A stretch of 64,000 bases of DNA, from contig CBDBHR010000030.1 of assembly GCA_965205865.1 (NCBI GenBank), positions 1,191,866 through 1,255,865 on the forward strand, written 5' to 3'. The number at the start of each line of letters is the position of its first letter. Positions within the stretch are counted from its first letter, which is position 1. Below the pieces are notes generated by a model, which was given only the letters and a program-made list of their open reading frames with translations, was not told where the DNA came from and searched no databases. Origin of the DNA: a bacterium. Its GTDB lineage: Bacteria; SAR324; NAC60-12. Shown piece by piece: positions 12,901 through 59,055 of this stretch. A program made the translations under genes and the position numbers.

Positions 12901-13129
12901 GGTTTGGAAGACAACTATGAAGAGAGCGGGGGTACGTTGACCTGAGGAATGAACAGTTGCTTTCATTGGAATTGAAGAGGTGATTCGAGAGGGAGTCTAT
13001 GAGATTCAGATCAAGTTCTCAAATGGATTTCTCTTGAAGAGATTCAGAGATATCTTGAAAACAAAAAAAGACTGAAACGAACCATTTTGAAGTTTCCGGA
13101 GACACTCAGAAAGGATTGGAGCGAGAAAC

Positions 13130-14037: not shown

Positions 14038-15642
14038 TGCGCCAGGAAAGCTGGCAAGAAATAGAGAGTGAAAGTCTCTTACTCGGTAAGGCAGTAACGA
14101 CCCGCCGAGTCCCCGAGTCATGAGTGGTTATTCGCAAGGATAGGCGCTAAGCGTTGACAGGGGAGAACATAGGCTCGGTATTGAGCTCCGAAATCATAGT
14201 CTCAGGCGCTGACCTTGTGGTCTGGTGGGGAAGGCAATATCAACCGAAGGCGTTAGCGTGAGTCTCGGCTGAGCCTGGCGGAGTCAAAGACCCGGTGCAT
14301 GTGTGGAAGTTTCTTGATCGGAACCTGGGAGATCCTGAAGACGACTGTCAACATTCTATTGGTAGTCGGATCGGGAAAATTAATAAATAACCCCGATATC
14401 TACGTCTTCAGGAAGTCGGACAAGTTCGTAGTAGCGTGAGCAGCCGACAAGGCTGTGGATTTTGGAGAGTGAAAGTCTCTCTGTCGTCAGTTTCCCATTC
14501 GGGCGACTAGCATATCCGGTGCGCTTAGCAGGTAACTGCTTTGCGTTCTGCCCGGAAGTAAAAGTCACCGTCTGCTTTGGACGAGAGTCCATAGTGGGAG
14601 CCAACAGGGTGGCGAGCAAACCTGGAGGCCTGAACATTAGTGAATGATTGCAGCTCCGAAAGAGACTTCCGTCGTGAATTGGCTTGACGGTGTGTTGCCC
14701 AACCGCCGACCCGCTCGCTACTCGGGGAAGGCCGAAGTTCCAAGGGAAGTAATGGGAACAGGCACCTTGGAGGGAGCCGGAGTATGGATCCAAGCATCCA
14801 GGGAAAGATCCACAGAGATAACGTCGGGAAGGGCCAACTTCCAGCAGGGACTCGCAATAACCTGCAAGGACCTACCGTATAGGGTAACACCGAAATCGGC
14901 AGGAGGATTTTGGTCTGGCGCATGAGTCCGTATGAGCGATGAAGACCGGGTAACGCTGGTCGAGGGGATGCTTGGACATCTCCCTTTTGGAGGTAACACC
15001 TCTAAAAGGCAAAGGGGCTCTCGGTAAATGGCGGGCATTTCATGAACCACTGCCGAACTTGTGTCGGTCAAGAGTGTCACCACAAAGAATGTCGAGCTGG
15101 AGATCAAATCACTCACTCCAGGGGTGAATGCAGGCGAGTGCTTAAGCTTCGGATTGGGTGGGAAGGGTTTCTGGGGAAACGCTGTTGCTGCCAACCGGAC
15201 TCGGGAAATCCGACCGTCCGGGATGAGAGGGGGGCTTGCGGAAACGTGATGCAGGGTCTGACGCCCTTTTGCCACGAAACCGGAAACGGGGGATACATTG
15301 GAAGTCGTTGACCTAAACATGCGCGCGCCGTATTTCTACCCGGCATGAAGCGGCGAACAATGAGATCATTTGCAGAGAGTAACAATGCAAAGGAAATCAA
15401 CGGAGCCTGTGGAGCAAAGGGACTTGGCTGAGAGGAATTCTGCTTGCCCTCCTGTGTTCGGAACTCAGAGGCCGTAAAATCAGAGAGCGGTTTAAGCAGG
15501 GTGCGCCAAACGGCAACGTTTGAGCGTCTGACTCGAAGCAGGAGCCGGATGCGTTAGCAGCGCACGTCCGGATCTGTACCGGAGGAATGACGAAAGGTGG
15601 CTGGAAACCACTATAAGTCAGTTCTTTACGGTGACTGCATAC
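14038..15642 (+). ncRNA. Group II intron RNA, apparently ORF-less (no intron-encoded RT/maturase); 3' boundary approximate
   Basis: Starts GUGCG at 14038, followed by the GCCAG-GAAA-CUGGC hairpin (DI). The D3-like block ...gggtaacgc...ggcaaagggg resembles Ll.LtrB-type IIA introns. Domain V candidate at 15542-15575: GAGCCGGAUGCG-loop-CGCACGUCCGGAUC with the AGC triad. The D6-like region follows. No ORF with RT motifs exists on either strand. Confidence 0.55.
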
Positions 15643-17196: not shown

Positions 17197-17658
17197 CTAG
17201 TGTATTGCCTGTTTAATACATTTGTATTATTGGTCATTTGGTAGACAGGTTTGAGTTTGTTGATAATTTCTTCGGCAGTTTTAGTCCAAACATATGGTTT
17301 TGGGTTGCGATTGTGCGCTTCGATGTAACTATGGATGGCTTCGGTCAACTCGAGCACGCTTTTGAAGGCGCCTCGCCGTCGCCACTTTCCAACGGAATTG
17401 CCGCTGGTTCCAAGCGTTTTGGCAATCTCTTGATTCTTAAGGCCATCAGCAGCCAACAGGATGATGCGCGCACGAAGAGCGTCTCGCATCGCTCCGGTCT
17501 GACGGCGTGCGGTTTTGCTCAATTCATCCCGTTCTTCCCGGGTCAGTTTTATACTTGGCGCTTTCCTAATGCTGTCTCCATATATGCAAATAAAAAGACA
17601 GCTCTAGTATAGCAAACCAAGGAATTATTTACACATTAATAAAAGAGCGACACACTAG
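17197..17658 (-). mobile_element. Internally deleted IS630 derivative (MITE-like), ~462 bp
   Basis: Both termini are identical to the 914-2097 element, but about 725 bp of the interior (corresponding to ~1090-1815) is missing. The remnant ORF fuses the transposase N-terminal HTH to its C-terminal tail (17052..17522). Confidence 0.8.
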
Positions 17659-17781
17659 GTAAGCTCATAATTATCCCTTCCGTTCAATACTTATCCTTCG
17701 CAACAAGCTTACCTGCGAGAACTGTTCCCATGCGCCACGCAGATGAGGCTTCGAGTCCTCCGGCAATGACTTGCCAGGCTT

Positions 17782-20700
17782 CTACGCTCTTTGCACTTCG
17801 ATGGCGCATGCTTCTCCGTTGATATCCCATTCGGTTCCACGTCGACCGGACATCAGGTGACCACTGGGAATAGCTTCCAGGTGATTGGCAAGAGTTTCCG
17901 TCTTGATAAACTGATCAAATCGCGTGACTGCTGTTTGCACGGATTGTGAAGTTTGATAACGAACATGAATACGCGCCATCACGTCGAACGCCTGCTCTTT
18001 TCTCATATTCTGTACTTTATTGACGAATTCCCGGGCAAATCCTTCTTGTTGCAAGTCAATTGTCAGTTCCGTATTCAGGGCAACGGTCACATTGTTTTCC
18101 GTCTGCGCCAGTAAGCCTTCTTTTTCATGACGTTGCAAAAGCACGTCTTCGGGTGCTAAGATAATAGTTTCTCCATCCAACTCCAATGTCGTCCGTTTGC
18201 CATCCCGCAGCCGAAAAATAGCGGAGGAATCGAGCTCCGCAATGGTTCGGGCGACTTGTTTCATGCGAACTCCGAGCTTCGGTCCGAGCACCCTGTAATT
18301 GGCCTTGGCGCTGTAAGTCACTAAATCTTCTTCATTGTCAGCCACGACGACTTTCTTGATATTCAACTCTTCCGTGATCAATTCTTCCATGTCGTTCAAA
18401 ATCGCTACGGCTTCCGGGTCACGGGTCACCAGAAAAATGCTGGCAAGGGGTTGTCGTATTTTCAATTGATGCTTGTTACGCAAGGCGCGTCCCATGCTGA
18501 CTGCCGAGAGCACCAATTCCATTTTCTTTTCGATTGCAGGGTCCCGATAGCGTCTCCGGACTTGGGGAAAGTTCGCCAGGTGCACGCTCTCTTCATCTCG
18601 TTCGTTTCGCAGATTGCGGTAAATTCCTTCGGCAATAAAGGGCACAAAGGGTGCGATCACTTTGGAGAGCTCCACTAAGACCTGATAAAGTACCGCATAG
18701 GCTTCCTGCTTGTCTTTTCCCTGTCCCGCCTTCCAAAATCGGCGGCGGCTGCGTCTAATATACCAATTGGTCAACAAGTCGATGAAGCCCACGAAAGGAG
18801 CAACGGATTTATTCAAATCGTAGGCGTCCATGCTGGCTCTCACTGTTTCGATCAGTCCCTGCAATTTGGACAATATCCAGCGATCCAGGGGATTGGAGGG
18901 CATGCTCAGTATTTCCCCGGAGGGCTGCCAGCGGTCGATAGCGGCATAGGTGGTCAGAAAGGCCAGAGCATTCCAAAGGGGCAGCAAAATAGAACGGGTG
19001 GTGTCCACCAGTCCTTTTTCCGAAAACCTGAGATCGTCTCCGCGTACTGCCGGGGAATTGAGCATGTAGAGACGAATGGCATCCGCTCCATATTGGTCCA
19101 ACATGTTGATAGGATCCGGATAGTTTTTCAGTCGTTTGCTCATTTTTTTACCATCTTCAGCCAGGACGAGTCCGTTGACGATGACATTGTGAAAGGCCGG
19201 TTTGTTGTACAATGCCGTCCCGACGACGACCAGAGAATAGAACCAGCCTCTTGTTTGATCCAACCCCTCACAAATAAAATCCGCAGGGAAATTGGCGTCA
19301 AATCTTTCTTTGTTTTCAAAAGGGTAATGTTCCTGACCATAGGGCATAGAGCCGGATTCGAACCAACAATCGAGCACTTCGGGAATCCGCTTATATATTT
19401 TGTCATTTTGAACTATCACCAGATCGTCCACCAAGTGTTTGTGCAAATCTTCCACTTTTTGTCCGCTCGCTTCTTCCAGTTCTGCCACGCTACCGAAACA
19501 GAGACAATCTCCATCCTCACTCTTCCAAATCGGCAATGGGGTTCCCCAGAAACGATTTCGACTGATGGCCCAGTCTCTCGCATTTTCCAACCATTTGCCA
19601 AAACGTCCATCCCGGATGTGCCCCGGTACCCAATGAATGGTCTGATTATTTTGCACCATCTGGTCTTTGATTGCTTCCACCTTGACGAACCAGGTCGAGA
19701 TGGCTTTATAGATGAGGGGGGTGTCCGTTCGCCAGCAGAAGGGATAACTGTGTTCGATGGTTTCGTGTCTGAGAATTTTGTTCTTGTCTTTCAAATAGCG
19801 GATGATCGTTTTGTCGGCCGCCTTGATATTCAACCCTGCCAGGAATCCCATGTAGGATTGAAAATTTCCGTCATCGTCCACCGGGTCGAACAGGGGTAAA
19901 CCTTCCCGCAGGCCAATCCGCAAGTCATCTTCACCAAAGGCTGGCGCTTGGTGGACAATGCCGGTTCCACTTTCATCACTGATATAATCGTCGACCAGCA
20001 CCCGCCATACCCGGCTGCTGTCCACTCGTCCAATGGCAAAGTCAAACGGTGGATGATAAGTTTTGTTCCGCAAATCGCTGCCTTTCAAGGCGTCAAGCAC
20101 TTCATATTCACCGGCTTGCCAATAAGCAGGTATGCGGTTGGTTGCCAGGTAATAGTTTTCTCCACTGGCCTTTTCCCTGATTTTGACGTAATCTATTTCC
20201 GCTCCGACACAGCATGCCAGATTTGCGGGGATGGTCCAGGGAGTGGTGGTCCATCCTAAATAATAAGTGTTTTCCTCATCAGTCGCCTGGCATTTGAAAG
20301 TAATCGAAGGATCCTGCGTCTCCTGATAGTTGAGGTTGGCTTCGAAATTGGAAAGAGGAGTTGAAAGCCGCCAGGAATAAGGCACCACTTTTCTGCCTTC
20401 GTAGATGAGATTCTTCTGCCATAATTGTTTCATCACCCACCAAACAGATTCCATGTAGGAGCGATCCATGGTTTTGTAATCGTTGTCAAAATCTACCCAA
20501 CGGGCCATACGATCCACGGTTTCCCGCCATTCCCTGGTGTATCGTAATACGATTTTGCGACATGCTTCATTGTAATTCCCTATACCAAATTCGATGATAT
20601 CCGGACGCCCTTCTAATTGGAGCGCTTGTTCCACCTCAAACTCGACCGGCAGTCCGTGGCAATCCCAACCAAAACGCCGTTCCACTCGATGGCCTCGCAT

Positions 20701-20916
20701 GGTTTTGTAACGAGGAATGACGTCTTTGATGGTACCGGCAAGCAAATGACCATAGTGAGGCAATCCTGTCGCAAAAGGAGGTCCATCATAAAATACGAAT
20801 TCACGATCTTTGGGACGTTGTTCGATCGATTTTTCAAAGATTTGTTGATGCTTCCAAAACGCCAGAATCTCGCTTTCAAGATCGGGGAAATTTATTTTAT
20901 TGGAAATTTCTTTCAT
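17782..20916 (-). CDS. ileS: Isoleucine--tRNA ligase, type 2 (eukaryote-like)
   Basis: 1044 aa; HYGH (HIGH) and KMSKR (KMSKS) motifs; CP1 editing domain. Confidence 0.95.
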   Translation of the reverse strand: MKEISNKINFPDLESEILAFWKHQQIFEKSIEQRPKDREFVFYDGPPFATGLPHYGHLLAGTIKDVIPRYKTMRGHRVERRFGWDCHGLPVEFEVEQALQLEGRPDIIEFGIGNYNEACRKIVLRYTREWRETVDRMARWVDFDNDYKTMDRSYMESVWWVMKQLWQKNLIYEGRKVVPYSWRLSTPLSNFEANLNYQETQDPSITFKCQATDEENTYYLGWTTTPWTIPANLACCVGAEIDYVKIREKASGENYYLATNRIPAYWQAGEYEVLDALKGSDLRNKTYHPPFDFAIGRVDSSRVWRVLVDDYISDESGTGIVHQAPAFGEDDLRIGLREGLPLFDPVDDDGNFQSYMGFLAGLNIKAADKTIIRYLKDKNKILRHETIEHSYPFCWRTDTPLIYKAISTWFVKVEAIKDQMVQNNQTIHWVPGHIRDGRFGKWLENARDWAISRNRFWGTPLPIWKSEDGDCLCFGSVAELEEASGQKVEDLHKHLVDDLVIVQNDKIYKRIPEVLDCWFESGSMPYGQEHYPFENKERFDANFPADFICEGLDQTRGWFYSLVVVGTALYNKPAFHNVIVNGLVLAEDGKKMSKRLKNYPDPINMLDQYGADAIRLYMLNSPAVRGDDLRFSEKGLVDTTRSILLPLWNALAFLTTYAAIDRWQPSGEILSMPSNPLDRWILSKLQGLIETVRASMDAYDLNKSVAPFVGFIDLLTNWYIRRSRRRFWKAGQGKDKQEAYAVLYQVLVELSKVIAPFVPFIAEGIYRNLRNERDEESVHLANFPQVRRRYRDPAIEKKMELVLSAVSMGRALRNKHQLKIRQPLASIFLVTRDPEAVAILNDMEELITEELNIKKVVVADNEEDLVTYSAKANYRVLGPKLGVRMKQVARTIAELDSSAIFRLRDGKRTTLELDGETIILAPEDVLLQRHEKEGLLAQTENNVTVALNTELTIDLQQEGFAREFVNKVQNMRKEQAFDVMARIHVRYQTSQSVQTAVTRFDQFIKTETLANHLEAIPSGHLMSGRRGTEWDINGEACAIEVQRA

Positions 20917-21284
20917 TCGTACTCCTGATTTCGCTGCCGAATTTTGTCATTGCGTTTCAATCTCATGCGGATGAGAGCAAGGATCAATGATGGCTGAAGC
21001 CCTACAACATTCAAGCGCAATGTCCGCTGACCGTGCTTTACAGAGCTTCCGATCCCGGAGTGTAGCTTCCAACAATCGTTTGTCATTCTTGCCTGTTCAA
21101 CTATGATCACGTCGACCAGGAAGCTTGCATACGCAAATGAGAATAGGAAGCAAAAGATCGATCCGACGTCGATTTTGGATTTCTTTATTGTCTCGAGCAT
21201 GGCATCCATTCCAAAGATCCGAAAAGATGGCGTGACGAAAAAAAGCCTTTCTTTCAGATGACCACTGGATTTTGAAGAATACAT
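20913..21284 (-). CDS. Hypothetical small protein (possibly spurious), overlaps the ileS start by 4 bp
   Basis: ORF only; no recognisable motifs. Confidence 0.15.
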   Translation of the reverse strand: MYSSKSSGHLKERLFFVTPSFRIFGMDAMLETIKKSKIDVGSIFCFLFSFAYASFLVDVIIVEQARMTNDCWKLHSGIGSSVKHGQRTLRLNVVGLQPSLILALIRMRLKRNDKIRQRNQEYE

Positions 21285-23975: not shown

Positions 23976-25288
23976 TCAAAGTTCTTGTAGGGCCAGTTTA
24001 ACGGCATGCGCAGTTTTCTCCAAATCCGCTTCCGAGTGTACCGTGGATATAAAGAGGGATTCGAAAGCGGAGGGGGCGAGATAGATTCCTGCCGCCAACA
24101 TTTCTTTGAAAAACTTCTTAAATCCCGCTACGTCCGTTTGTAAGGCATCTTGATAATTGCGTACCGGGTTTGCGGCAAAGAAAAAACCAAACATCCCTCC
24201 CATGTGATGGGCTTGAAAAGGGAGGCCTGCTTTTTCGAACAGACTCGTCATTTCATTGACCAGCCACGAACATTTTTGGCTGAGATCCGCATAAACTCCT
24301 TCACATTTGAGCAATTGAAGGGTGGCAATGCCCGCTGCTACCGCAATGGGATTGCCCGACAAGGTGCCTGCCTGATAAACCGGGCCGACAGGGGCAACTT
24401 GCAACATGATATCCTGACGGCCGCCATACGCGCCCACAGGTAAACCTCCTCCAATCACTTTGCCAAAAGTGGTGAGATCCGGCTGAACGTTTAAAAGAGC
24501 TTGCGCCCCTCCGTAATCCACGCGGAAACCGCTCATCACTTCATCAAAATAAGCACCATCCCTTCCCGATTACACAAATTCCGCAATCCCTGCAAGAATC
24601 CATGTTCCGGTAAAATCATTCCCATGTTTCCCGCCACCGGCTCGACGATCACTGCCGCTATTTCCTGAGGATGAAGATCCAGCAGTTCGATCACCGAATC
24701 GAGATCATTGTAACGCGCCAACAGAGTCAACTCCACAAATGCTTGTGGCACTCCGGCAGAATCAGGTTTGCCCAAAGTGGTGGCACCCGAACCGGCTTGT
24801 ACGAGTAAGGGATCCACGCTGCCGTGATAACATCCTTCGAACTTTATGATCTTGTCTTTTCCGGTATAGCCACGCGCAGTCCGGATTGCCCCCATAGTGG
24901 CTTCACCGCCGGAGTTGACGAGCCTCAGAATCTCGATGCCCGGCACGGCTTCTTTGACCATCTCCGCTAAAACGACCTCGTTTTCAGTAGGGGCGCCGAA
25001 TGAGGTACCGGCATGCAGCGCTTTTTCCACTGCCTCCATCACCGCTTGATGACAATGACCTAAAATGAGGGGTCCCCAAGAGCCCACATAGTCGATGAAC
25101 TCGTTGCCATCAATATCATAAATTTTTGATCCTTTGCCTCGCTCAATGAAAAGGGGGTGTGTCTCCACGGATTTGAATGCGCGAACGGGACTGTTTACGC
25201 CTCCTGGAATCGATAGTTGCGCACGCTCGAAAAGTTGAAGAGATCGACTGAATTTCATGGCTATGTCCTTATCAAAGAGAGCCTGCAA
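23976..25288 (-). pseudogene. hemL: Glutamate-1-semialdehyde 2,1-aminomutase, interrupted by a -1 frameshift in a T/A run (about 24545-24549)
   Basis: The N-terminal piece (24536..25288) and C-terminal piece (23976..24539) together match HemL end-to-end. At the junction LILMK* and MSGFRV should read [12 protein letters not shown]; one extra T restores the frame. Possibly a sequencing artefact. Confidence 0.8.
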
Positions 25289-28459: not shown

Positions 28460-28862
28460 TAGTTCGAGTTAATGCATGTTTCTATGAAATGCTCATTAGA
28501 GAATTTGAGGGTTACACTTTGAATAGTTTATTTTATTTATCTTTGTTTTTTTGTCAAGTTGCGTTCGAGGGAGTTTAATTGAAAAATAACTATTGCATTT
28601 CCCCTCATTCCTCTTATCTGAAAACCGTTGCTCCCTACCTTCCTGTTATTTCGCCGCTCAAAGGAATCTTTCAGACCTCTACCCTGAAAAACTTAAAAAA
28701 CCAATAACCTTCTTCATTGAGTTTATGTTTTTTTAATCTCTTAGGGTCTGATTCCCCGCAGTCTTGCTGCGATGAAAATGATTTACCAATAAATACGCCG
28801 CTGCTTGCCGCAGGGTAGTTCATTTTTTTCGCGAATCCTGTTTTTTTAGGCTATACGTTGTA

Positions 28863-29110
28863 TAGTAGTGCTAAAATCATGACTTGTTGTTTCAGGGAAG
28901 AAGAGGGTTCCCGCTCGATCGATTGAACAATGCCGTGGTAGGGCGTGAAAACGATGGATCCTCCCCGGGAATCTTTTTTCAACATTTTTGTATTTTAGGC
29001 TTGATCCTGAGGATCCTAAGTAGTAGTAGTGTTAAAATCATTTCTTGTTGTTTTGGGAAAGAGAGGGCGTGAAAACGAGTCATCCCCCCCGGGAATCTTT
29101 TTTCAACTTT
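28863..29110. repeat. Dispersed repeat family (same family as 12411-12900, opposite orientation), two tandem sub-units
   Basis: tagtagtgctaaaatcatgacttgttgtttcagggaagaagagggttcccgctcgatcgattgaacaa...gggaatcttttttcaac is repeated with variation. Confidence 0.7.
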
Positions 29111-29602
29111 TTGCTATTCTTATGAACTCGAGAGTGACGAATTCTTGTCAGTCAATGAAATTAAAATCACTGACTGATACACATTCTCATTTCCGCGAAA
29201 GCGCATTGGATCAACTTAAGAGTCCGTATATTATTTCAGTTACTTGGAGTCAAAAATAGAATTCCACACCCCTGGAAAGATGGGCCAGGGGAGCGGGAAT
29301 CCGTAGTGTTTTCATAGGCTAATGAAGACTGGATCCCGCATCAAGTGCGGGATGACACGAGAATTCGTAACTCAAGAGCAATGAGAGTAGGCGCGATGAG
29401 ACGTAGAATCAATAGCAGGCAGTTAACTTCTGACAAAAGAGGAATTATGAAAGATAAAATCAAAAAAAATATCAATCAACTTCTGAAAAAGGAGAAATTA
29501 TGCGACATCCAATAAATCAAATCCAATTCACTTCTAATAAAGAAGAAGCAATGGAACATCCAAGGAATCTTAACCCAAATCAAAGTGAAAGAGGAGGAAT
29601 CA

Positions 29603-31359
29603 TGGAAAAAAGTATAACCAGAAAAATCAATTCATTGTTGTTGACCCTCATCCTGATGGTGACCGTCCTGTGGGTCGGGTCGGTCGTTGCTGCTGAGAAA
29701 GAGATGGTCACCGACCCCACCACCGGTAAAATGGTGAGCGCACCGGAGTATGGCGGGACATTCAGCTGGGGCGATGCGCTCGAGCCTCCGCACTGTGACC
29801 CCTACCTGCATGGCCATGGGCCAAGGGTCATCGATGAAGTTGGAGAGAAGCTGGGCCTCGGGAACTGGGCAGTAGATCGGGCCGAACATAGCTTTTCAGA
29901 CCCGTGGATCCCTTCCCATTTCATGACAGGGGCGCTGGCGGAAAGCTGGGAGATGGCTGACCCACTGACCTATGTCTTCCACATTCGCCAGGGCATTCGC
30001 TGGCACGACAAGGCGCCGATGAATGGTCGGAAGTTCATTGCCCAGGATGTCGTCTATAACTTTCACCGTTATACAGGTACGGGCAGCGGCTTCAGCGAAC
30101 CGAGCGCCGGTGCCGGCAATCTCGCCTCAATACCATTCGAATCGATAACGGCCAGAGACGATGCGACGGTTGTCTTCAAACTGACGAAGCCAAAGGTAGA
30201 CCTGCCTGACGTTCTCCTGGTCGACTGGTATGCGTGGATATTACCCCCTGAGGTCATCGAGCAGCATGGCGACCTGACGGACTGCGACAACATGGTCGGC
30301 ACCGGGCCCTATATGCTGACCGAATGGGTCAAGGGCAGCTCCCTGACCTATTCCAAGAATCCTGACTACTGGGACTTCGACGAAAAATACCCGCAGAACC
30401 GCTTACCCTACATCGACCAGATAAATCGGTTGATCATGCCGGATAAGGCAACATCGCTGGCGGCGCTGCGCTCGGCCAAGCTCGATTACGTCGGTCAGCC
30501 TGGCATCAATCAGTTACAAGCGTCCCAGGTAGAGAGCCTCGAGCGCACCAACCCCGAAATCGTAGTATGGCCGTGGGCCTTTCGGTCGGAGACCTCCGCT
30601 GCATTCAACGTGCGCCACCCGTCGCCCTTTCAAGACATCCGGGTGCGTAAGGCCATGCAGATGGCCATTGATATCGAAACCATTAACAAGACCTACTTTG
30701 GGGGCTTTGGAATGACGACGCCCCAAGGGATTATAGGGGATGGTCTGAAGGGGTACTTCGTCCCATTCGAAGAGTGGCCCGAAGAGACCAAGAACGTCTT
30801 TACTTATGACCCGGAAGGGGCGATGCGGCTTCTGGCTGAAGCGGGCTATCCCAATGGCTTCAAGGCCGTCCATAACCCTTTGCCCTCATGGGGGCTGGGC
30901 TATCAAGAGATAGTCGTTGAATACTGGGCTGCGATTGGCGTTGACGTAGAGATCAAGACGCATGAAGGCACTCAGTTGACGGGATTAATAACTGACGGTT
31001 CGTATGAAGGCATGACCTTTATGGATCTCGGCAATGACACCTCGCCTCCCTTGCTGCTAAACCGGCTTCAAATCGGGGCGGTGTGGGGCCGCACCGGACA
31101 CCAGGACCCCGTGATGCAGTCCAAGGTTGAAGCCGCTATGGCCGCTCCCACCCTCGAGGAGCAGCAGCGGCTGACCGCGGAGGCAGATTTGTACATGATC
31201 GAGCAGCATTGGTACATATGGGGTCCCAAAGTTCCCCAATTCGACGCGATCCAGCCGTGGGTGATAGGTTTCAACGGTGAAATCTTTGTTGGCAACTCAC
31301 ATGCGCCGTTCTCCCGTCTGTGGATCGATAGTGCGCTGAAGAAAGAAATGGGGCATTAG
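29603..31359 (+). CDS. ABC transporter substrate-binding protein, family 5 (cluster 2)
   Basis: GAGGAGG Shine-Dalgarno 6 nt upstream of the MEKS start; signal peptide; EYGGTF, KAMQMA and WIDSALKKEMGH signature. ~60% GC versus ~45% for the backbone. Confidence 0.85.
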
Positions 31360-31464
31360 GAGCTGTGTTAAAACCTTGTTCCCCCTCTCCTGGTGGGAGG
31401 CAGAGAAGCAGTTTGGCCACAGGCGTGGCCAGTAAAAACTACTGAACGCGGGAGGGGGCATCAT

Positions 31465-32421
31465 ATGAAAGCCTATCTCATCCGGCGGGTATTGCTGGTA
31501 ATCCCCACCCTGTTTATCCTGAGCATCCTGGTCTTTCTCTCGGTGCGCTTCATCCCCGGCGACGTCGTAGATGCCATGTTGGGTCAGCTGCAGTCGACAA
31601 TAGGGAGGATAGACCGTGCAGCCGTTGAGCGTCGGCTGGGACTGGACGTGCCGGTCTGGGAGCAGTATGGACGCTGGATCGGCCAGATTCTCCGGCATGG
31701 CAGCCTGGGCAAATCCCTGTGGGGCGAATGGACGGTAGAGGAGAGGATACTAGCTAGCCTGCCGATCACCCTTGAGCTTGGCGTCCTGGCCATCGTAATC
31801 GGGCTTGTGATCGCGCTGCCCGTGGGTATCTACTCGGCGATGCGCCAGGATACGGTCGGCGATTACGCGGGGCGTTCCCTGGCCATCATCGGCCTGGCCA
31901 CGCCGAACTTCTGGCTGGCCATTATGGTGATACTCTACCCGGCCATCTGGTGGGGCTGGACGCCGCCGATGCAGTGGGTTCCTTTCACCAAAGACCCGCT
32001 GGGGAATCTCGGGATATTCCTCATTCCCAGCGCGATTCTGGGGACAGCCATGGCCGCCGCCACCATGCGCATGACGCGCACTATGATGCTGGAGGTGCTC
32101 CGGCAGGACTATATCCGCACCGCTTGGTCCAAGGGCCTCAGGGAGCGGGTCGTGATTATCCGGCACACCATCAAAAATGCCCTCATCCCGGTGGTAACTC
32201 TGATCGGCCTGCAGTTGCCGATCCTGGTAGGGGGCGCGGTGATCATGGAGAATATCTTCAACCTGCCGGGACTCGGTCGTCTCATGCTGGATGCCCTGCA
32301 ACACCGGGACTACCCGGTGGTCCAGGGAACCAACCTGTTTTTCGCGACCGGGGTGGTGCTGCTCAATCTTTTGATCGACCTGATATATCCCTATTTGGAC
32401 CCCAGAGTCAGATATGAATAG
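31465..32421 (+). CDS. ABC transporter permease, DppB-like (cluster 2)
   Basis: MKAYLIRRVLLVIPT...MRMTRTMMLEVLRQDYIRTAWSKGL; Shine-Dalgarno GGAGGGGG. Confidence 0.85.
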   Translation: MKAYLIRRVLLVIPTLFILSILVFLSVRFIPGDVVDAMLGQLQSTIGRIDRAAVERRLGLDVPVWEQYGRWIGQILRHGSLGKSLWGEWTVEERILASLPITLELGVLAIVIGLVIALPVGIYSAMRQDTVGDYAGRSLAIIGLATPNFWLAIMVILYPAIWWGWTPPMQWVPFTKDPLGNLGIFLIPSAILGTAMAAATMRMTRTMMLEVLRQDYIRTAWSKGLRERVVIIRHTIKNALIPVVTLIGLQLPILVGGAVIMENIFNLPGLGRLMLDALQHRDYPVVQGTNLFFATGVVLLNLLIDLIYPYLDPRVRYE

Positions 32422-32464
32422 TCGTTATGCTTCTGGTAAATATAGGTTTGAGATTCGTCTGTCA

Positions 32465-32885
32465 GAAGTAGTCCCTGAGGGACGAAAGGAAGTAGCCCAG
32501 CGATTCATCGCTGGGAACAAAAGATAGTCTCCTTCAAAGTCCCGGAGGGACGATACAACAATGAGGTTTCATGTCCCATTCCTACATCAGCAATCATCTT
32601 CATGGTGTCTTTTGCGCAAAAAACCGAGTTGAGATGATGACTCCTGAAATCAAAAAGCGCCTTTTTCCTTATTTGACATCATGAGCGTTATATTTGGGAG
32701 TAACTCGCTGGATCGAAGAAGTGTCGTCCCTCCGGGACTAGCTGAGGAGGAGGGGGGTTCCTTTCCCAGCGATGAATCGCTGGGCTATTCCCTTTCGTCC
32801 CTCTGGGACTAGCTGAGGAGGGGGTTCCTTTCCCAGCGATGAATCGCTGGGCTATTCCCTTTCGTCCCTCCAGGACTGCATTATA
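32465..32885. repeat. Cluster of short hairpin repeats inserted between the two permease genes of cluster 2
   Basis: Hairpin cccagcgattcatcgctggg at 32496, and its reverse complement twice (32766, 32833) inside a tandem ~70-bp unit. Multiple gtccctNNgggac palindromes. Confidence 0.7.
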
Positions 32886-32899
32886 GAAAAATCGAGAAC

Positions 32900-33868
32900 A
32901 TGAGCGACAGCATAGAGACGCCATCCCCGATCATTGAGTCCAAGCGACGGGGCCGGTTTGTGGATTTCTTCATCAGGCTGATCAGGGAAAAGCCCCTCGG
33001 GACGTTTGGCGGGATAGTCACCTTGATCTTTATTTTGTTGGCGATCTTTGCCGAGCTTCTGGCGCCTTATCCCTATCGGGAAATACACCTGGCCGACATA
33101 CTAAAAGGCCCAGCCGCCCAGTATCTGCTGGGGACCGACCATTTGGGGCGAGACCTGTTGAGCCGCCTTCTCTACGGGGCTCGTATTTCCTTGACCGTCG
33201 GTCTGGCCGCGACGGTGCTGAATGTGGTGGTCGCTGTCCTGATTGGCGGCACTTCCGGATTCCTGGGGGGGAAAGTGGACCTGGCGGTGCAGCGCTTTGT
33301 CGATGCCTGGATGGCCTTCCCGGGGCTGCTCTTGTTGTTAACCATCATGTCCATCGTGGGACAAGGCCTCCTCCAGATCATCGTGGTGTTGGGGATTACC
33401 GGAGGTGTCGGCGGCTCCCGAGTCATCCGAGGCGCCGTGGTGGGCATCAAAGAGAATGACTATTTCCTGGCAGCCAGGGCCGTAGGCACTCCCACGCGCC
33501 ATATCCTGACCCGCCATGTGCTGCCCAATATTATGGCGCCCCTCATCATCATCTTCTCGATCAACATTGGCGGCGTAATCATCGCCGAGGCGTCGCTGAG
33601 CTTCCTGGGATTCGGGCTGCCCCTCAAGGTTCCCAGCTGGGGAGGAATGCTCAGCCGGGAAGGGCGGGAATTCATGGAGCGGGCGCCCCGGCTGGCGCTC
33701 TGGCCGGGGCTGTGCCTGACGATTGTCGTCTACTCTCTCAACATGTTCGGAGACGCCATGCGAGACCTGCTGGATCCCCGGCTGCGAGGCGGACAGGGAA
33801 GTTACGGCGCCACGGGGAAACGCAAACGAGGTCTCTTGGCCCGACTGATCAACCCTTTCAACTGGTAA
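32900..33868 (+). CDS. ABC transporter permease, DppC-like (cluster 2)
   Basis: LLGTDHLGRD, SLTVGL, GDAMRDLLDPRLRG. Confidence 0.85.
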   Translation: MSDSIETPSPIIESKRRGRFVDFFIRLIREKPLGTFGGIVTLIFILLAIFAELLAPYPYREIHLADILKGPAAQYLLGTDHLGRDLLSRLLYGARISLTVGLAATVLNVVVAVLIGGTSGFLGGKVDLAVQRFVDAWMAFPGLLLLLTIMSIVGQGLLQIIVVLGITGGVGGSRVIRGAVVGIKENDYFLAARAVGTPTRHILTRHVLPNIMAPLIIIFSINIGGVIIAEASLSFLGFGLPLKVPSWGGMLSREGREFMERAPRLALWPGLCLTIVVYSLNMFGDAMRDLLDPRLRGGQGSYGATGKRKRGLLARLINPFNW

Positions 33869-33931
33869 GCGCGCAATATGAAATATACTCGCCTGAATCG
33901 AATGGTCTCTTAAGAGACCTCAATAGTAACC

Positions 33932-35386
33932 TTGAATATTAAAATGCGATCCCATATCTTGGTTCCTGTTCTCAACTCGAATCGATATCCTGCTTTGCCG
34001 GTCCTTCTTACAGATGCCATAGAAAATAAAATGAACTCTAATAAAGTCAGAGATTCGGTGGTTGCCCTTTTTACCTGCAAAGATCGTGTATTTGTCATCC
34101 AAAGGCAGTCTTATTTGACGGTTTTCCCCGGTTATCATTCATTTCCGGGAGGCAAAGTGGATCGGGAAGATTCGCATCAACCCTATGAGATTCGTTTTCT
34201 CCGTGACCACAAAGCCCAGATGATGCATGCCCTTTGTCGTGAAGTTGAAGAAGAATTGAATTTTGATTTGGCAGCCGCCATTTTAAGGGGTCAGGTCGAA
34301 CATTTTTCAAAATTCGGATATGCCATCACTCCTGTTTTCAATCCTGTTCGTTTCAATGCCCGATTTTATAGAATAGAACTGACCTCCCGGGTGGAATTCA
34401 ATGTGGACAGTAACGAAACGGCATGGGCGAGTTGGCTTTCTGCGCAGGATTTTATGAAGCAATACCAACAGGGACAGATTTTGGCTGCCGTTCCCACACT
34501 GCGCGTGATGGAGAGGTTGGCTGAAAATCCGAATGTCAATAATTTGGCAGAACTGCATTTGAGTTATGATCCGCAAAACGAAGTGCCTTGTATGCAGCCC
34601 GTCTATCAAGTAGTGCAGCTGCCGGTTCCATCGAATACTCTTCCTCCTGCGGAAAGCACGAATGCCTTCATTCTGGGCGATGATCATTGCGAGCGTTATC
34701 TGGTAGATCCTTCGCCGGCATCTCCGGAGGTGTTGGCACGTTTGCATCATGTGGTCCGTTCCTTCCGAATAACGGGTGTTTTTTTAACGCACCATCACCC
34801 GGATCATCATCAATTCTGCAACAAACTGGCCCGTGACTTTCAAGTTCCAATAAAAATGAGCCGGGATTCCTATGAACGGATTTGTAAGAAATTCGGCCAT
34901 GAATATTTTGACAAGCTTGAAATCCAGTTTGCTCAGGAAGGGGACATTCTCACTCAATGGCTGGGTAAAGATATCCAAATTTTTGAGATTCCAGGGCATG
35001 ATGAAGGGCAATTGGGGTTGGCGCCAACGACGATGGACTGGTTTCTGGTAGGAGATTTGATGCAGGGCGTCGGAACTGTCGTGATTGCAGCGCCGGAAGG
35101 AAATATGAAAAAATATTTTGCGTCCCTGGAGAAGGTCATCTCGTTGGACCCCAAGATCATCATTCCTTCTCATGGCATACCTCTGAGAACCACGTTGTAC
35201 CTCAAAAGAGCCCTGGAACATCGGCAGATGAGAGAGCGACAGATTCTACAACTTTACAAGGAGGGAAAATCAAAAGAGGAAATGTTGTCGACACTCTATC
35301 AGGATATCGACCCTCGATTACTGCAGGCAGCCTTGCGCAATATCGAATCCCATCTGGCAAAGCTGCAAACAGACCATTTGATTTGA
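33932..35386 (+). CDS. Fusion protein: N-terminal NUDIX hydrolase domain + C-terminal MBL-fold metallo-hydrolase domain
   Basis: Nudix box GGKVDREDSHQPYEIRFLRDHKAQMMHALCREVEEELN. MBL motif LTHHHPDHH plus downstream H/D ligands. The true start may be the internal MNSNK. Confidence 0.65.
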   Translation: MNIKMRSHILVPVLNSNRYPALPVLLTDAIENKMNSNKVRDSVVALFTCKDRVFVIQRQSYLTVFPGYHSFPGGKVDREDSHQPYEIRFLRDHKAQMMHALCREVEEELNFDLAAAILRGQVEHFSKFGYAITPVFNPVRFNARFYRIELTSRVEFNVDSNETAWASWLSAQDFMKQYQQGQILAAVPTLRVMERLAENPNVNNLAELHLSYDPQNEVPCMQPVYQVVQLPVPSNTLPPAESTNAFILGDDHCERYLVDPSPASPEVLARLHHVVRSFRITGVFLTHHHPDHHQFCNKLARDFQVPIKMSRDSYERICKKFGHEYFDKLEIQFAQEGDILTQWLGKDIQIFEIPGHDEGQLGLAPTTMDWFLVGDLMQGVGTVVIAAPEGNMKKYFASLEKVISLDPKIIIPSHGIPLRTTLYLKRALEHRQMRERQILQLYKEGKSKEEMLSTLYQDIDPRLLQAALRNIESHLAKLQTDHLI

Positions 35387-35491: not shown

Positions 35492-35875
35492 TTATGCCCG
35501 GAGTTGTTTTGTTAGAATCGTATTTTCCCTTTTCAAAACTCTGAATTGTTCATCGAGTGCTGCAATGACGCTATTTTTCATGTGCAGCAATTCCAGGAGG
35601 GTTTCATCACACTCTCCGACGCGCACCAAGGACGTGCTCACCACCATCTCTTCTCTTCCAGTCTCATACCAAGTCGGATTGAGCCCATATTTAATCTGCA
35701 TGAGCATGACGGTTTGTTGGGACGGGTTGCTTTCCCCCCGTTTGATCTTGTAGAGCGCCTGCACTGAAATACCGATATTGTCCGTAACCTTTGTGAGTGA
35801 ATATCCTTTATCTGATTTTAAATAATCAAGAAATTCAGAAAAGCGCTTCCTTTGCGCATTGGATCGAACCGTCAT
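35492..35875 (-). CDS. XRE-type HTH regulator with coiled-coil tail (paralog 1)
   Basis: LTKVTDNIGISVQALYKIKRGESNPSQQTVMLM fits a helix-turn-helix; about 60% identical to the N-terminus of the neighbouring ORF. Confidence 0.6.
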   Translation of the reverse strand: MTVRSNAQRKRFSEFLDYLKSDKGYSLTKVTDNIGISVQALYKIKRGESNPSQQTVMLMQIKYGLNPTWYETGREEMVVSTSLVRVGECDETLLELLHMKNSVIAALDEQFRVLKRENTILTKQLRA

Positions 35876-35941
35876 TTTCTTATTTTTTAAAAGAGGTATG
35901 GATTTTATTCAAAAAGATGCTTGCAAAAATTTACCCTTGTT

Positions 35942-36619
35942 TCAGGAAGTTTTTCTATTTCGCGCGATCTTTTTTTCGAGTTCCTGCAGAAAATATTGGC
36001 GCAATCGCTCATCGACTTTTTTTGGAACCAGTTTTGTACCCCCGGCGATTATAGCGCTCAATGTTTTTTCCGGATTTTCTTCCGACACTATTTTTCCCTT
36101 GATCAGTAGCTTTTGGTCCATGGATAGTCCTGTTAACAATTTTTTTAATGCCAGTCCCGTCAGTCTTTCTTGGAGCAATTGTTTGTATTCATTGTATTTG
36201 GCCCGATTCAACTGGTTCACATTAACCGGCGCCTTTTGCCCAATTTTCTTTTGCATGATCGCATTTTTCTTTTTCAAGGACTCGTTTTGATGAGTTAACT
36301 CTTCAATCACATGATTCTTCATGCGGATCAATTCCATCAAAATCTCGTCCGAACGTTCAAGGAGACCCGAACCTTCCCTGACCTCCATCGTGCCTTGTCC
36401 GGTCTCGTACCAATTGGTATTCAATCCGTATTTGATCTTGAGTAACATAACGGTTTGTTTGGAAGGATTGATTTCTCCTCGTTTGATTTTGTAGAGTCCC
36501 TGTACCGAAATTCCGATGTTCTCAGCAACTTTAGAATAAGAAAATCCCTGATCTGATTTTAGATTCTCCAAAAATTCAGAGAACCTTCTTCTATGTAAGG
36601 CATCCCTATTAACACTCAT
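35942..36619 (-). CDS. XRE-type HTH regulator with extended coiled-coil C-terminus (paralog 2)
   Basis: The same HTH block (VAENIGISVQGLYKIKRGEINPSKQTVMLL) plus a ~120-aa K/E-rich tail. Confidence 0.6.
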   Translation of the reverse strand: MSVNRDALHRRRFSEFLENLKSDQGFSYSKVAENIGISVQGLYKIKRGEINPSKQTVMLLKIKYGLNTNWYETGQGTMEVREGSGLLERSDEILMELIRMKNHVIEELTHQNESLKKKNAIMQKKIGQKAPVNVNQLNRAKYNEYKQLLQERLTGLALKKLLTGLSMDQKLLIKGKIVSEENPEKTLSAIIAGGTKLVPKKVDERLRQYFLQELEKKIARNRKTS

Positions 36620-36749: not shown

Positions 36750-36985
36750 TAACCTGAGTTCGACATAAATCTTCAATAATATGAGTATCCTAGCGTATAT
36801 GTCATCCTCGCGAAACTTGTCCCCGCGAAAGCGGGGAGCGGGGATCCGGATTTCAGTCTGGCTGCATACCTCCGGATTCCTTCCCTGCGTACGCAGGGAT
36901 CTCGCAGGAATGACAAGGTTTCTCTAAGATATGAAGATTCCATAACATATTGAATTTATTAAATTCTTATCTCGAACTCAGGTTA
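36750..36985. mobile_element. MITE copy A (~236 bp, Tc1/IS630-like, TA-flanked), inverted relative to copies B and C
   Basis: TIR TAACCTGAGTTCGACATAA ... TTATCTCGAACTCAGGTTA. Internal palindromes ccctgcgtacgcaggg and ccccgcgaaagcgggg. TA dinucleotide at both junctions. Confidence 0.8.
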
Positions 36986-37702: not shown

Positions 37703-37743
37703 AAGCCTTACCGTGCTGGAGGTTATTGGTAATAAACCTGAGT

Positions 37744-37984
37744 TCGAGATAAAAATTTAATAAATTCAATATGTTATGGAATCTTCATATCTTAGAGAAA
37801 CCTTTTCATTCCTGCGAGATCCCTGCGTACGCAGGGAAGGAATCCGGAGGTATGCAGCCAGACTGAAATCCGGATCCCAGCTCCCCGCTTTCGCGAGGAC
37901 AAGTTTCGCGGGGACAAGTTTCGCGAGGATGACATATACACTAGGATACTCATATTATTGAAGATTTATGTCGAACTCAGGTTA
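37744..37984. mobile_element. MITE copy B (~241 bp)
   Basis: Same element as 36750-36985 in the opposite orientation, with a short internal duplication (gacaagtttcgcg x2). Confidence 0.8.
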
Positions 37985-47223: not shown

Positions 47224-48384
47224 ATGAATCATTCTGACAATGTCCATCGACTGCAACTGAAAGACAAGGAAGTGCTTCTCATTGGGACAGCCCACATTTC
47301 TCGAGAAAGTACCAACGAAGTGATGCAGGTGATTGAACACGAACAGCCCAAGACGGTTTGTGTCGAACTGTGCAAGTCTCGATATGAAGCTCTTTCCCGC
47401 AAAGACCACTGGAAAAGCATGGACATATTCAAAGTTATCCGGGAGAAAAAAACTTTTTTACTCCTGGCCAATATCATCCTGGCTTCTTTTCAAAAAAGGC
47501 TGGGGAACAAATTGGGCATTCAACCCGGCCGGGAAATGATCGTAGCCATTGATTCGGCAAAAGCCATTCAGGCAAACATTGTGCTGGCAGATCGAGACGT
47601 ACAAACCACCTTTCTGAAAACCTGGCGCATGCTTCCTTTTCGGGAAAAAGTGAAAGTGCTCATGCAGATGATGATGAGTGTTTTTGTCTCGGAGGAAATC
47701 AGCCGAGACGATATCGAAAAAATGAAGACCCAGGATGTGTTGACAGAAACCATGGAGATCTTCTCCCGTCAATCACCAATGATGAAAAAGGTTCTCATTG
47801 ACGAACGAGATCAATATCTTGCAGAAAAAATCAGGACGGCGCCCGGGGAAAAAATCGTCGCGGTGGTGGGCGCAGGACATGTACCTGGAATAAAAAAAGA
47901 AATAAACCACTCGCACGACTTACCTGTCTTGGAACAGGTACCATCTCCTGCGCGGTGGGGAAATTGGTTGAAATGGGGTATTCCTGCCTTGATCATCTCC
48001 TTGATTGCTTATGGTTTTTTTCTCGCCGATTGGAATGTTGGCATTGAAATGGTAAAACGCTGGTTTTTGATCAATGGGATTTTGTCGGCTCTCGGAGTAG
48101 TACTGGCGGCAGGTCATCCTTTGACCATCCTTTCTGCTTTCATTGCCGCCCCTTTCACGTCTCTGAATCCTACCATCGCAGCAGGTTGGGTTGCCGGGTT
48201 GGTCGAAGCGTTTGTGCGTAAACCACAGGTTCGGGATTTTGAAAACCTCATGGAGGACATCACCCATATCTCCGGATTCTGGAGAAACAAAGTCACCCGT
48301 ATTCTTCTGATTGTTGTTTTTGCGAATGTCGGCAGTATGGTGGGGACATTCATTGGCGGTGGGGCCATCATCGAACTATTGTAA
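47224..48384 (+). CDS. TraB/GumN-family protein with C-terminal TM segments
   Basis: LIGTAHIS...TVCVELC...VVGAGHV motifs of the TraB family. Confidence 0.75.
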   Translation: MNHSDNVHRLQLKDKEVLLIGTAHISRESTNEVMQVIEHEQPKTVCVELCKSRYEALSRKDHWKSMDIFKVIREKKTFLLLANIILASFQKRLGNKLGIQPGREMIVAIDSAKAIQANIVLADRDVQTTFLKTWRMLPFREKVKVLMQMMMSVFVSEEISRDDIEKMKTQDVLTETMEIFSRQSPMMKKVLIDERDQYLAEKIRTAPGEKIVAVVGAGHVPGIKKEINHSHDLPVLEQVPSPARWGNWLKWGIPALIISLIAYGFFLADWNVGIEMVKRWFLINGILSALGVVLAAGHPLTILSAFIAAPFTSLNPTIAAGWVAGLVEAFVRKPQVRDFENLMEDITHISGFWRNKVTRILLIVVFANVGSMVGTFIGGGAIIELL

Positions 48385-48595
48385 CCTGAGTTCGAGATAA
48401 GAATTTAATAAATTCAATATGTTATGGAATTTTCATATCTTAGAGAAACCTTGTCATTCCTGCGAGATCCCTGCGTACGCAGGGAAGGAATCCAGAGGTA
48501 TGCGGCCAGACTGAAATCTGGATCCCCGCTTTCGCGAGGATGACATATACACTAGGATACTCATATTATTGAAGATTTATGTCGAACTCAGGTTA
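48383..48595. mobile_element. MITE copy C (~213 bp)
   Basis: TAACCTGAGTTCGAGATAA...TTATGTCGAACTCAGGTTA with TA on each side. Same internal palindromes as copies A and B. Confidence 0.8.
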
Positions 48596-48620
48596 TTGTG
48601 AGAATCTCGGGAGAACACGG

Positions 48621-58500: not shown

Positions 58501-59055
58501 GCAGAGCCGATTATCTCTGACCACGCCCAAAGGACGTGGTTTCATCAGATAAAATAAATCGAATGTCCAAAGTCCAGGAGGGGGAATAAAGTTGTTGTTT
58601 TTTTCTGAGGGTTAAAGAATTTCTGCTGGTCTTTTGCTTTCTCTTGTGATAGTTCTCGAGAAATCGTCTTTGGCTGAAGGTTTTATTTCAATTTCGCTCA
58701 TATTTATTTAGCCGAAAGTCATGTAAAACATCATATCCTCACCAGAGGATTTTTAGAAACTGTCAACGGGGAATTGAAAAGTGCCAAAAATGTTGACTTC
58801 CGTATTTCTATATGAAAAAGTATTTTCGTTGATCATAAGAATACACTCATGAATGAATGAGTCGCCATATTTAAAAAAATCTTGATACGTTTGCAGAGCG
58901 ATTATAATATTTTATTCCAGGGACGGAAAAGCAATAATGAGATCCTTCGCTTTGCCGCTCGGCGTACCGTCAGGATGACATGAAAGTCTGAAATTAACCC
59001 GTTTCAAGTATAAAAAATCTTGATAATGAGGTGGATATGAGAGTAAACTCAAAAA

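Follow-up and report, generated by a model that had tools for sequence, protein, structure and literature searches.

A 64,000-nucleotide stretch of contig CBDBHR010000030.1 (assembly GCA_965205865.1; hereafter the window), taken from a genome assigned to the SAR324 lineage, carries three sets of PepT/Dpp-type importer genes and one DppC fragment within a backbone of housekeeping genes. Each set was laid out as a gene for a substrate-binding protein (SBP) followed by genes for a DppB-type and a DppC-type permease, and ATP-binding cassette (ABC) ATPase genes of the DppD/DppF type are missing from all of them. We consider it probable (roughly 0.68) that these gene sets are plug-in specificity modules of the PepT/Dpp type, acquired horizontally and energised by shared DppD/DppF-type ATPases that are encoded elsewhere. 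Because ATPase genes are absent in cis while the ATPase-coupling helix is conserved and purifying selection is detectable, ATPases shared from elsewhere in the genome would be the best-supported mechanism.

The set in the interior of the window, cluster 2, consists of an SBP gene (29602–31359, + strand; 585 aa with a Sec-type signal peptide; PF00496, E 2.6e-64; GC content at third codon positions, GC3, 0.69), a DppB-type permease gene (31462–32421, +; 319 aa; PF00528 and PF19300; GC3 0.775) and a DppC-type permease gene (32900–33868, +; 322 aa; PF00528 and PF12911; GC3 0.752). The SBP start codon, an ATG at 29602, is preceded by a strong Shine-Dalgarno sequence, and DppC ends in the SAR324-specific C-terminal tail ...GKRKRGLLARLINPFNW. 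A preliminary description of the window had listed three such trios and a fourth permease fragment. Pfam searches placed them within 1 nt of the coordinates given there, with the cluster 2 SBP starting at 29602; the DppC gene of cluster 3 is in fact a pseudogene, and a non-coding insertion of 478 bp between dppB and dppC of cluster 2 (32422–32899) had been missed.

No open reading frame (ORF) in the window combines a Walker A motif with LSGGQ, and none matched a DppD/DppF query in phmmer searches. The proximity of clusters 1 and 3 to the two window ends could suggest ordinary complete operons whose ATPase genes lie just beyond the edges, yet cluster 2 is internal and equally devoid of an ATPase gene, and three contigs that extend past the ends contain no DppD/DppF genes. 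To the right, a contig 98.6% identical to the window (L003) adds 8.9 kb that hold transposases, a permease fragment and an SDR only. On the other side, the 7–10 kb downstream of the cluster 1 DppC are likewise free of such genes in a contig of the same species (L086) and in a locus of OZ242383, a related 4.26-Mb chromosome labelled only 'bacterium' (L084); the sole ABC ATPase there, 8 kb away in the OZ242383 locus, is a MacB-type exporter ATPase. Edge-truncated operons are therefore scarcely credible. The preliminary description, which had reported no ATPase genes with the clusters and had pointed to the regions just outside the window as the place where they might still occur, is thus borne out in the window and in the near-identical contigs past both ends.

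The same gene order extends to a large family. A scan with the cluster 2 DppB, run over one genome per species, returned matches at 64–81% identity, most of them in five 'Spirochaetia' metagenome-assembled genomes (MAGs), in Dehalococcoidia MAGs, in one Caldilineaceae MAG and in OZ242383, with dozens of paralogues to a genome. In the window and ~1.5 Mb of related loci, a motif scan combined with phmmer recovered 358 permease ORFs and 173 SBP ORFs, which come down to 125 DppB, 114 DppC and 112 SBP genes once duplicates and fragments are removed. The ATPase-less order SBP-DppB-DppC occurs in ~125 modules from nine assemblies, large Spirochaetia genomes among them, and no ATPase gene belonging to a module was found within 10 kb of any family module in the best 80 loci and in contigs L001–L003. 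In OZ242383 alone, 12 loci hold at least 18 DppB, 19 SBP and 15 DppC genes, none of them with an ATPase. Other ABC-ATPase-like ORFs near modules were set aside as exporter-type (ABC_membrane fusions) or DrrA-/MacB-like. The absence of ATPase genes in cis is thus a property of the family, and 'ATPase-less importer' is a statement on gene order.

The survey contained a single DppD/DppF pair, at 17266–20958 of locus L025 (Spirochaetia genome OZ253572), in the operon order D-F-B-C. No SBP gene lies directly upstream of the pair; the nearest belongs to an SBP-DppB-DppC module of the family ~5 kb upstream. This operon is a candidate 'motor' locus for the OZ253572 genome. As the family's own motor it was rejected, since the adjoining permease is just 31% identical to the family DppB, which places the pair in another PepT subfamily.

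The permeases themselves retain the parts by which they would engage a motor. In Escherichia coli, a scoop motif of DppB inserts into the cleft of DppA, and DppB docks DppD while DppC docks DppF (PMC12136057). Alignment with E. coli DppB (8z1v; E 6e-67) shows that the cluster 2 DppB has kept the coupling (EAA) helix. The 15-mers that vary least among 81 family DppBs lie in RTMMLEVLRQDYIRTAW, the coupling helix, and the scoop region (residues ~36–52) is the least conserved; in DppC the coupling helix is present and its loop residues are lineage-specific. Pairwise dN/dS among paralogous permeases is 0.2–0.3. By sequence, the clusters are therefore bona fide PepT components with intact, conserved ATPase-coupling helices. 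These data also bear on the idea that the modules work without any ABC ATPase, as SBP-dependent sensors, as facilitators or with another energy source. Such a role would agree with ~125 modules lacking an ATPase in cis and with a DppC C-terminal tail of unassigned role, but it would leave the helices that dock the nucleotide-binding domains as the most conserved parts of the permeases; we regard it as very improbable, and we know of no precedent for ATPase-independent permeases of type I ABC importers.

Selection is clearest in cluster 1, where all three genes lie on the minus strand and are intact: the SBP (family 5) at 5524–7254 (576 aa; PF00496, SBP_bac_5, E 1.8e-60; GC3 0.62), the DppB-type permease at 4434–5384 (316 aa; PF00528 and PF19300, BPD_transp_1 and BPD_transp_1_N; GC3 0.757) and the DppC-type permease at 3415–4353 (312 aa; PF00528 and PF12911, BPD_transp_1 and OppC_N; GC3 0.693). 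Compared with its orthologue in OZ242383, the SBP is 92% identical in amino acids with a dN/dS of ~0.15; the corresponding values are ~0.055 for DppB and ~0.12 for DppC. Cluster 1 is under strong purifying selection (dN/dS 0.05–0.15), at a dS of 0.24–0.34 from OZ242383. Its DppB orthologues (97–99%) are confined to this lineage, the next matches reaching at most 60%, and its permeases and SBP are 53–55% and 35% identical, respectively, to those of cluster 2; cluster 1 is a divergent subfamily restricted to this lineage. An exact-protein look-up for the cluster 1 DppB gave no match. On the 3' side of the cluster 1 DppC lie a frameshifted GFO/IDH/MocA pseudogene and then an IS630 transposase, and no ATPase gene. 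The pseudogene (2123–3261, −) is 79% identical to an intact copy at 8693–9804, and the transposase (930–2060) adjoins it.

We propose the following mechanism. Each module, made up of SBP, DppB and DppC, would supply substrate specificity; the scoop of DppB would contact the SBP as in E. coli, and it is in this stretch that the family DppB varies. The modules would be energised by DppD/DppF-type ATPases elsewhere in the genome that are common to many modules, and the host-specific features of DppC might make newly arrived modules compatible with the resident motor. Birth and death mark the family, with cluster 1 selected, cluster 2 intact but interrupted, cluster 3 decaying and fragment 4 a relic.

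Horizontal acquisition of the clusters is strongly supported by sequence comparison. Cluster 2 is an insertion: it lies in a segment of ~5.5 kb (28575–34042) that corresponds to only 173 bp in L087, a genus-level syntenic relative with ~80% nucleotide identity to the window. In L087 the gap between the M16 peptidase and NUDIX-MBL genes measures 284 bp, so that the site which cluster 2 occupies in the window together with its repeat-rich leader is empty there, and every flanking gene from the isoleucyl-tRNA synthetase (IleRS) to DnaJ is syntenic. The position of cluster 2 is conserved in contigs of the same species, among which L082 and L083 are syntenic with the window and 98–99% identical; it is absent from L087. 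Two Xre-type helix-turn-helix genes (35492–36619, −) between NUDIX-MBL and an isochorismatase gene are also absent from L087 and thus form a second small insertion beside cluster 2.

Clusters 2 and 3 belong to a large family circulating among SAR324, Spirochaetia, Dehalococcoidia and Caldilineaceae genomes. The nearest relative lies in the same lineage for only 26% of the SAR324-lineage DppB copies and 32% of the SBP copies, and the best nucleotide matches of the window DppB genes are in other phyla: 84% in a Spirochaetia MAG for cluster 2 (dS 0.39) and 87% in Dehalococcoidia. For the window DppC genes, that of cluster 2 included, the best nucleotide matches are all in the SAR324-type chromosome OZ242383. 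Between phyla, identical residues use the identical codon at a frequency of 0.63–0.69, against 0.38–0.41 expected from codon usage; synonymous sites are therefore unsaturated, which excludes vertical descent and requires transfer. Furthermore, cluster 3 differs between the window and OZ242383 by a dS of only 0.04–0.06, while backbone genes reach 0.8–1.0 against L087. In the OZ242383 pair, the neighbouring FG-GAP gene has a dS of 1.2 and the GFO gene 0.455, so that the backbone divergence between these two genomes is loosely bounded. Where the preliminary description spoke of recent horizontal acquisition, the empty site, the cross-phylum identity and the low dS uphold the transfer; 'recent' is right for clusters 2 and 3, and less clearly so for cluster 1. 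The original observation is partly confirmed and its interpretation partly supported.

Cluster 3, on the plus strand, is no longer a complete importer. Its SBP ORF (59559–61328; 589 aa; PF00496, E 4e-66) and its DppB-type permease gene (61598–62605; 335 aa; PF00528 and PF19300) are intact, and its DppC (~62598–63344) is a pseudogene split over three reading frames, with a deletion of ~190 bp (the equivalent of 33004–33193 in cluster 2) and at least two frameshifts. The lesions differ between contexts: L001 carries a large internal deletion, and in OZ242383 (L029) the gene is cut after ~75 nt. The cluster 3 DppC has therefore been destroyed independently in three contexts (the window, L001 and OZ242383). 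The SBP, with 96.7% nucleotide identity to OZ242383, a dS of 0.042–0.045 and a dN/dS of 0.73–0.76, is under relaxed constraint and drifting, and the DppB (97.2% to OZ242383; next 86.8%, in a Dehalococcoidia MAG) has a dN/dS of 0.33–0.34 and is found as the exact protein on three metagenome contigs. Fragment 4 (63726–64000, −), a 3'-truncated DppC remnant that leaves the window at its end, translates to DppC residues ~61–150 followed by a stop and shares 83% nucleotide identity with positions 33081–33348 of the cluster 2 DppC.

A repeat-rich leader (58612–59558, +) precedes the cluster 3 SBP and is co-linear with SBP and DppB elsewhere: the unit of leader, SBP and DppB (58612–62631) recurs at 98–99% in L001/L002 with another upstream neighbour, and in OZ242383 the leader is ~90% identical. 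It contains a (CCCAGTT)n heptamer run (~59058–59125) and a duplicated 57-bp element (59359–59415 and 59470–59526). Parts of it, in frame as '...GFKAxLN...ERKKM', are kept 5' of other SAR324-lineage SBPs, and the leader may thus have a role common to these genes, in regulation or as a translated stretch. Locus L036 (CAYSLK010000165, labelled Dehalococcoidia), of 3.5 kb, carries an SBP with a SAR324-type leader and signal peptide in nearly the pattern of cluster 3, and is probably a mis-binned SAR324 contig. An ORF of 159 aa (63102–63581, −), possibly PIN/toxin-like as judged by eye and also present in L003, extends over the 3' end of the decayed DppC of cluster 3, and a short ORF (63559–63807) follows it.

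Several points weigh against modules driven by shared ATPases. The sharing step is one that we infer, no partner genes having been found in the window or in the ~1.5 Mb of related loci. We know of no demonstration that several DppB-DppC pairs of the PepT family share ATPases. The system in which such sharing has been demonstrated is that of the sugar (type I) importers (PMC7658222). The family survey covered the best 80 of more than 572 matches, and the trees are neighbour-joining trees without support values. Within cluster 2, the insertion between dppB and dppC (GC 0.483) consists of three hairpin units and an IS200/RAYT-like remnant; lying inside the dppB-dppC transcript, it folds to −217 kcal/mol (z = −11.9), and so stable a hairpin might impair dppC expression. 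Finally, there are signs of decay in the family: the dead DppC and the elevated dN/dS of the SBP in cluster 3, the relic fragment 4 and split SBP and DppB genes in related loci.

These signs would be expected if the modules were mostly non-functional debris, left when complete dpp/opp operons were scattered by insertion sequence (IS) and miniature inverted-repeat transposable element (MITE) activity and by recombination in a decaying, host-restricted genome. The hairpin insertion in cluster 2 and the state of the window, with its IS630 copies, MITEs, group II intron, partial second copy of IleRS and broken aminotransferase and GFO genes, fit that picture. Against it, the ORFs of clusters 1 and 2 are of full length and cover whole Pfam profiles, the low dN/dS of cluster 1 and the values of 0.2–0.3 between paralogous permeases indicate constraint, and the coupling helix is the best-conserved part of 81 DppBs. 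Moreover, random breakage is not expected to leave one ATPase-less gene order in ~125 modules from nine assemblies. We therefore judge wholesale decay distinctly improbable.

The hairpin units of the insertion correspond to Acido-Lenti-1 (RF01687) at 51–54 bits, located at 32470–32515 (−), 32765–32810 (+) and 32832–32877 (+). The copies, two direct and one inverted, enclose the remnant of an IS200/RAYT-like N-terminal ORF, an arrangement suggesting that this 'small RNA' motif is here a REP-type element. A promoter and terminator scan of cluster 2 gave counts no higher than the shuffled expectation, and exact-protein look-ups for the cluster 2 DppB and the NUDIX-MBL protein gave no match.

Base composition supports a foreign element and at the same time complicates its history. 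The GC content is 53.6% for cluster 1, 56.8% for cluster 2 and 55.3% for cluster 3, against 46.5% for the remaining window. The preliminary value of 60–63% for clusters 2 and 3 was overstated, 56–60% being reached by single permease genes only; the anomaly is nevertheless real and strong at third codon positions, with a GC3 of 0.64–0.78 for the clusters, where DppB (0.74–0.78), DppC (0.69–0.75) and SBP (0.62–0.69) all exceed the 0.504±0.03 of 21 other window genes. Neighbouring SDR, GFO, 2-hydroxyacid dehydrogenase and FG-GAP genes do not deviate clearly, and the GC islands are essentially the transporter coding sequences. It had been asked whether a genome-wide GC near 60% might make the housekeeping genes the anomaly. 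This is not the case: GC3 averages 0.479 over 40 non-transporter genes from 12 loci around the OZ242383 chromosome, where family genes have 0.61–0.75, and L087 has a GC content of 43.9%. In the high-GC hosts ('Spirochaetia' MAGs ~64%, Dehalococcoidia MAGs ~59–61%) the composition of the importer family equals that of the host; in SAR324-type genomes it does not.

Two features of this composition must be added to the points on the opposing side. The GC3 of the family is nearly constant in all hosts, whatever their genome GC, with the ranking DppB > DppC > SBP, and the SAR324-specific signal-peptide and C-tail segments have a GC3 of ~0.62 rather than ~0.49, which rules out a 'native' composition of the host-specific ends. 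Import from high-GC donors alone is therefore insufficient. Given that lineage-clustered DppC copies also keep a GC3 of 0.70–0.75, the pattern is not predicted by simple recent import followed by amelioration, and GC richness is no simple clock of recency. A process intrinsic to the family, either GC-biased gene conversion or codon/mRNA selection, could maintain the GC richness in a family that has possibly been a long-term SAR324 resident, and conversion among paralogues is a candidate cause of the sustained high GC3. As a full account this is unlikely, given the empty cluster 2 site in L087, the 84–87% nucleotide identity across phyla at unsaturated synonymous sites, and a cluster 3 dS far below that of the backbone against L087 or of FG-GAP in the OZ242383 pair. 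Recent conversion tracts between clusters 2 and 3 were sought by sliding identity and longest exact runs; both stayed within the permutation expectation, and conversion between these two clusters was rejected. Thus, an intrinsic process may add to horizontal transfer and is no substitute for it.

The subunits of one module do not have a single common history. The excess identity of SAR324 copies within their own lineage is 0.00–0.04 along the mature SBP and small in DppB (~0.02–0.07), and rises to 0.15–0.18 at the N-terminus, at residues ~192–221 and at the C-terminus of DppC. The nearest DppC relative lies in the same lineage for 84% of SAR324, 79% of Dehalococcoidia and 88% of Spirochaetia copies, and pS and pN of DppC are lower within lineages than between them, while those of DppB are equal. 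Residues 192–221 form the coupling-loop region, with the consensus AvGTPtsqIL in SAR324, AiGss.wr in Spirochaetia and AiGSp.aaTl in Dehalococcoidia. At its C-terminus, DppC carries ...GSYGxxGKRKRG[LF]L[AS]RLINPF[NK]W in 17/19 SAR324 copies, a tail absent in other phyla; Dehalococcoidia copies stop at DPRLRGGEG/R and Spirochaetia copies end ...GGRLGADAARSV. The SBP gene varies likewise at its 5' end, encoding a Sec signal peptide in SAR324, another signal peptide with an EEEPAAAA linker in Spirochaetia and a long (VVKEVEVPGETVVVEKE)n linker in Dehalococcoidia, and the common mature SBP begins at ...YVTDPTTGKxVxAPEYGGT.

By these patterns, the mature SBP and DppB are exchanged across phyla as companions, and the signal or anchor region, the DppC N-terminus, the coupling loop and the C-tail are host-lineage-specific. 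That SBP and DppB form a transferable specificity unit, with DppC and the export signal adapted to the host, is suggestive but not proven. A tentative extension, possible without being favoured, holds that the parts are interchangeable: an SBP-DppB specificity cassette would be passed between phyla and grafted onto host-specific ends, namely a signal peptide or cell-wall linker on the 5' side and DppC on the 3' side, with one motor serving dozens of front ends. In that case, the DppC coupling loop and basic C-tail might be tuned to the resident DppD/DppF.

The backbone of the window consists, by Pfam searches of all long ORFs, of housekeeping genes that include IleRS, Lon, the M16 peptidase, NAPRT, TrkH, hrcA-grpE-dnaK-dnaJ and RecJ. 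Homology indicates that the host is a SAR324-lineage bacterium: the nearest named homologues of DnaK, 80–85% identical, come from 'SAR324 cluster bacterium' MAGs, and NUDIX-MBL homologues point the same way. The host genome contains many IS elements, MITEs and pseudogenes, and OZ242383 has MITE-like repeats and orthologous importer modules in common with the window. A sponge or other host-associated habitat is something we infer only from the co-occurring taxa and the MAG names.

Further observations concern the remainder of the window. The IleRS 3' end (17645–18549) is duplicated at 13119–14023 with 98.6% identity; a group II intron domain 1-4 RNA (RF02005, 168 bits; 14071–14293) adjoins the copy, and IS630-related fragments (914–1094 and 1813–2098, matching 17197–17658) border both IleRS 3' copies. 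A class-III aminotransferase gene (23976–25288, −) is broken into ORFs of 187 aa and 250 aa that overlap each other; in L087 it is intact as one gene of 376 aa and Lon is split instead, and both breaks look like lineage-specific frameshift pseudogenes. A MITE-like repeat of ~230–250 bp is present in three copies (36750–36984, 37735–37984 and 48375–48621) that are 82–92% alike, with similar copies in OZ242383 loci. None of the three is found in the same-species contig L082, so these insertions are recent.

The substrates are probably not canonical dipeptides. The nearest solved structure of the cluster 2 SBP is DppA (1dpp, E 6e-27), and HbpA and OppA are also among the nearest structures of the SBPs, the match to DppA being a distant one. 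DppA residues Arg355 and Asp408, which hold the two termini of the bound peptide, each correspond to an Asn of the cluster 2 SBP, in an alignment of low identity, and the DppA equivalog model NF043070 yields 93 bits where its cut-off is 1005. In NCBIfam naming, only sub-threshold matches to Dpp, Opp, Nik, Gsi and Cnt models were obtained, the permeases matching Opp2B and Opp4C models best, and all equivalog scores are far below their cut-offs. Clustering of 574 neighbouring ORFs revealed no gene family consistently beside the modules. The largest neighbour group is that of SDRs (12 loci), with luciferase-like monooxygenases, MR/MLE enolases, TPP enzymes and transposases also present, and a substrate assignment from these heterogeneous oxidoreductases and similar enzymes was abandoned.

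If shared ATPases do serve these modules, ATPase sharing would extend from sugar importers to the PepT family, with dozens of permease pairs per genome, and importer specificity would pass from phylum to phylum in a compact unit of 4 kb that lacks a motor. Such spread would help to explain how co-resident bacteria converge on one nutrient pool, and would amount to recombination-based modular sharing of uptake specificities in one, probably sponge-associated, community. Annotation by 'module completeness' would rate such importers incomplete or pass over them, and uptake capacity would be underestimated. Additionally, the division between exchanged SBP/DppB and host-specific DppC would offer a hypothesis on the contacts that set ATPase compatibility.

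Built from standard PepT components, the machine is not new in kind. As a variant it is notable, because the lack of ATPase genes is a family property, the family is hugely expanded and exchange between phyla is mosaic. Measured by the features of PepT (TC 3.A.1.5), a family-5 SBP, two distinct permeases and coupling helices are present, and the two in-operon ATPases (ABC_tran with oligo_HPY) are absent. Our literature search found no specific description of ATPase-less PepT expansions. The modules resemble E. coli DppABCDF and OppABCDF (8z1v-8z1z, PMC12136057) in their family-5 SBP, their DppB-type and OppC_N permeases and the order SBP-B-C. They differ in lacking dppD and dppF in the operon, in SBPs of 585–590 aa (576 aa in cluster 1) that are distant from DppA (E 1e-27), in dozens of copies per genome and in the lineage-specific basic C-terminal tail of DppC.

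Sugar importer operons without an ATPase are presumed, or have been shown, to rely on multitask ATPases, namely MsmX in Bacillus subtilis, MsmK in Streptococcus pneumoniae and MsiK in Streptomyces (PMC7658222), and likewise combine an SBP with two permeases in several ATPase-less operons per genome. Their ATPase is a MalK-like homodimer, whereas the PepT modules would need DppD/DppF-type proteins with oligo_HPY; copies are far more numerous here (the 12 loci of the 4.26-Mb OZ242383 carry at least 18 DppB genes), the modules are exchanged between phyla, and the sharing is our proposal. In Borrelia burgdorferi OppA1-5 and in pneumococcal AliA/AliB with AmiCDEF, extra SBPs feed one translocator (PMC7822543, PMC11192437). 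There, too, the PepT substrate range is widened by added SBPs while other subunits are reused, but the SBP alone is multiplied; here it comes with its own DppB and usually its own DppC, and the ATPases would be what is reused. Like classical genomic islands, the clusters deviate in composition (GC3), and at the syntenic site of a relative, L087, cluster 2 is absent. Unlike such islands, no integrase adjoins the clusters, the window holds no tRNA that could be a target, self-comparison found no direct repeats flanking 28575–34042, and the shift in GC tracks the coding regions of three genes. Their spread looks more like recombination within a multigene family.

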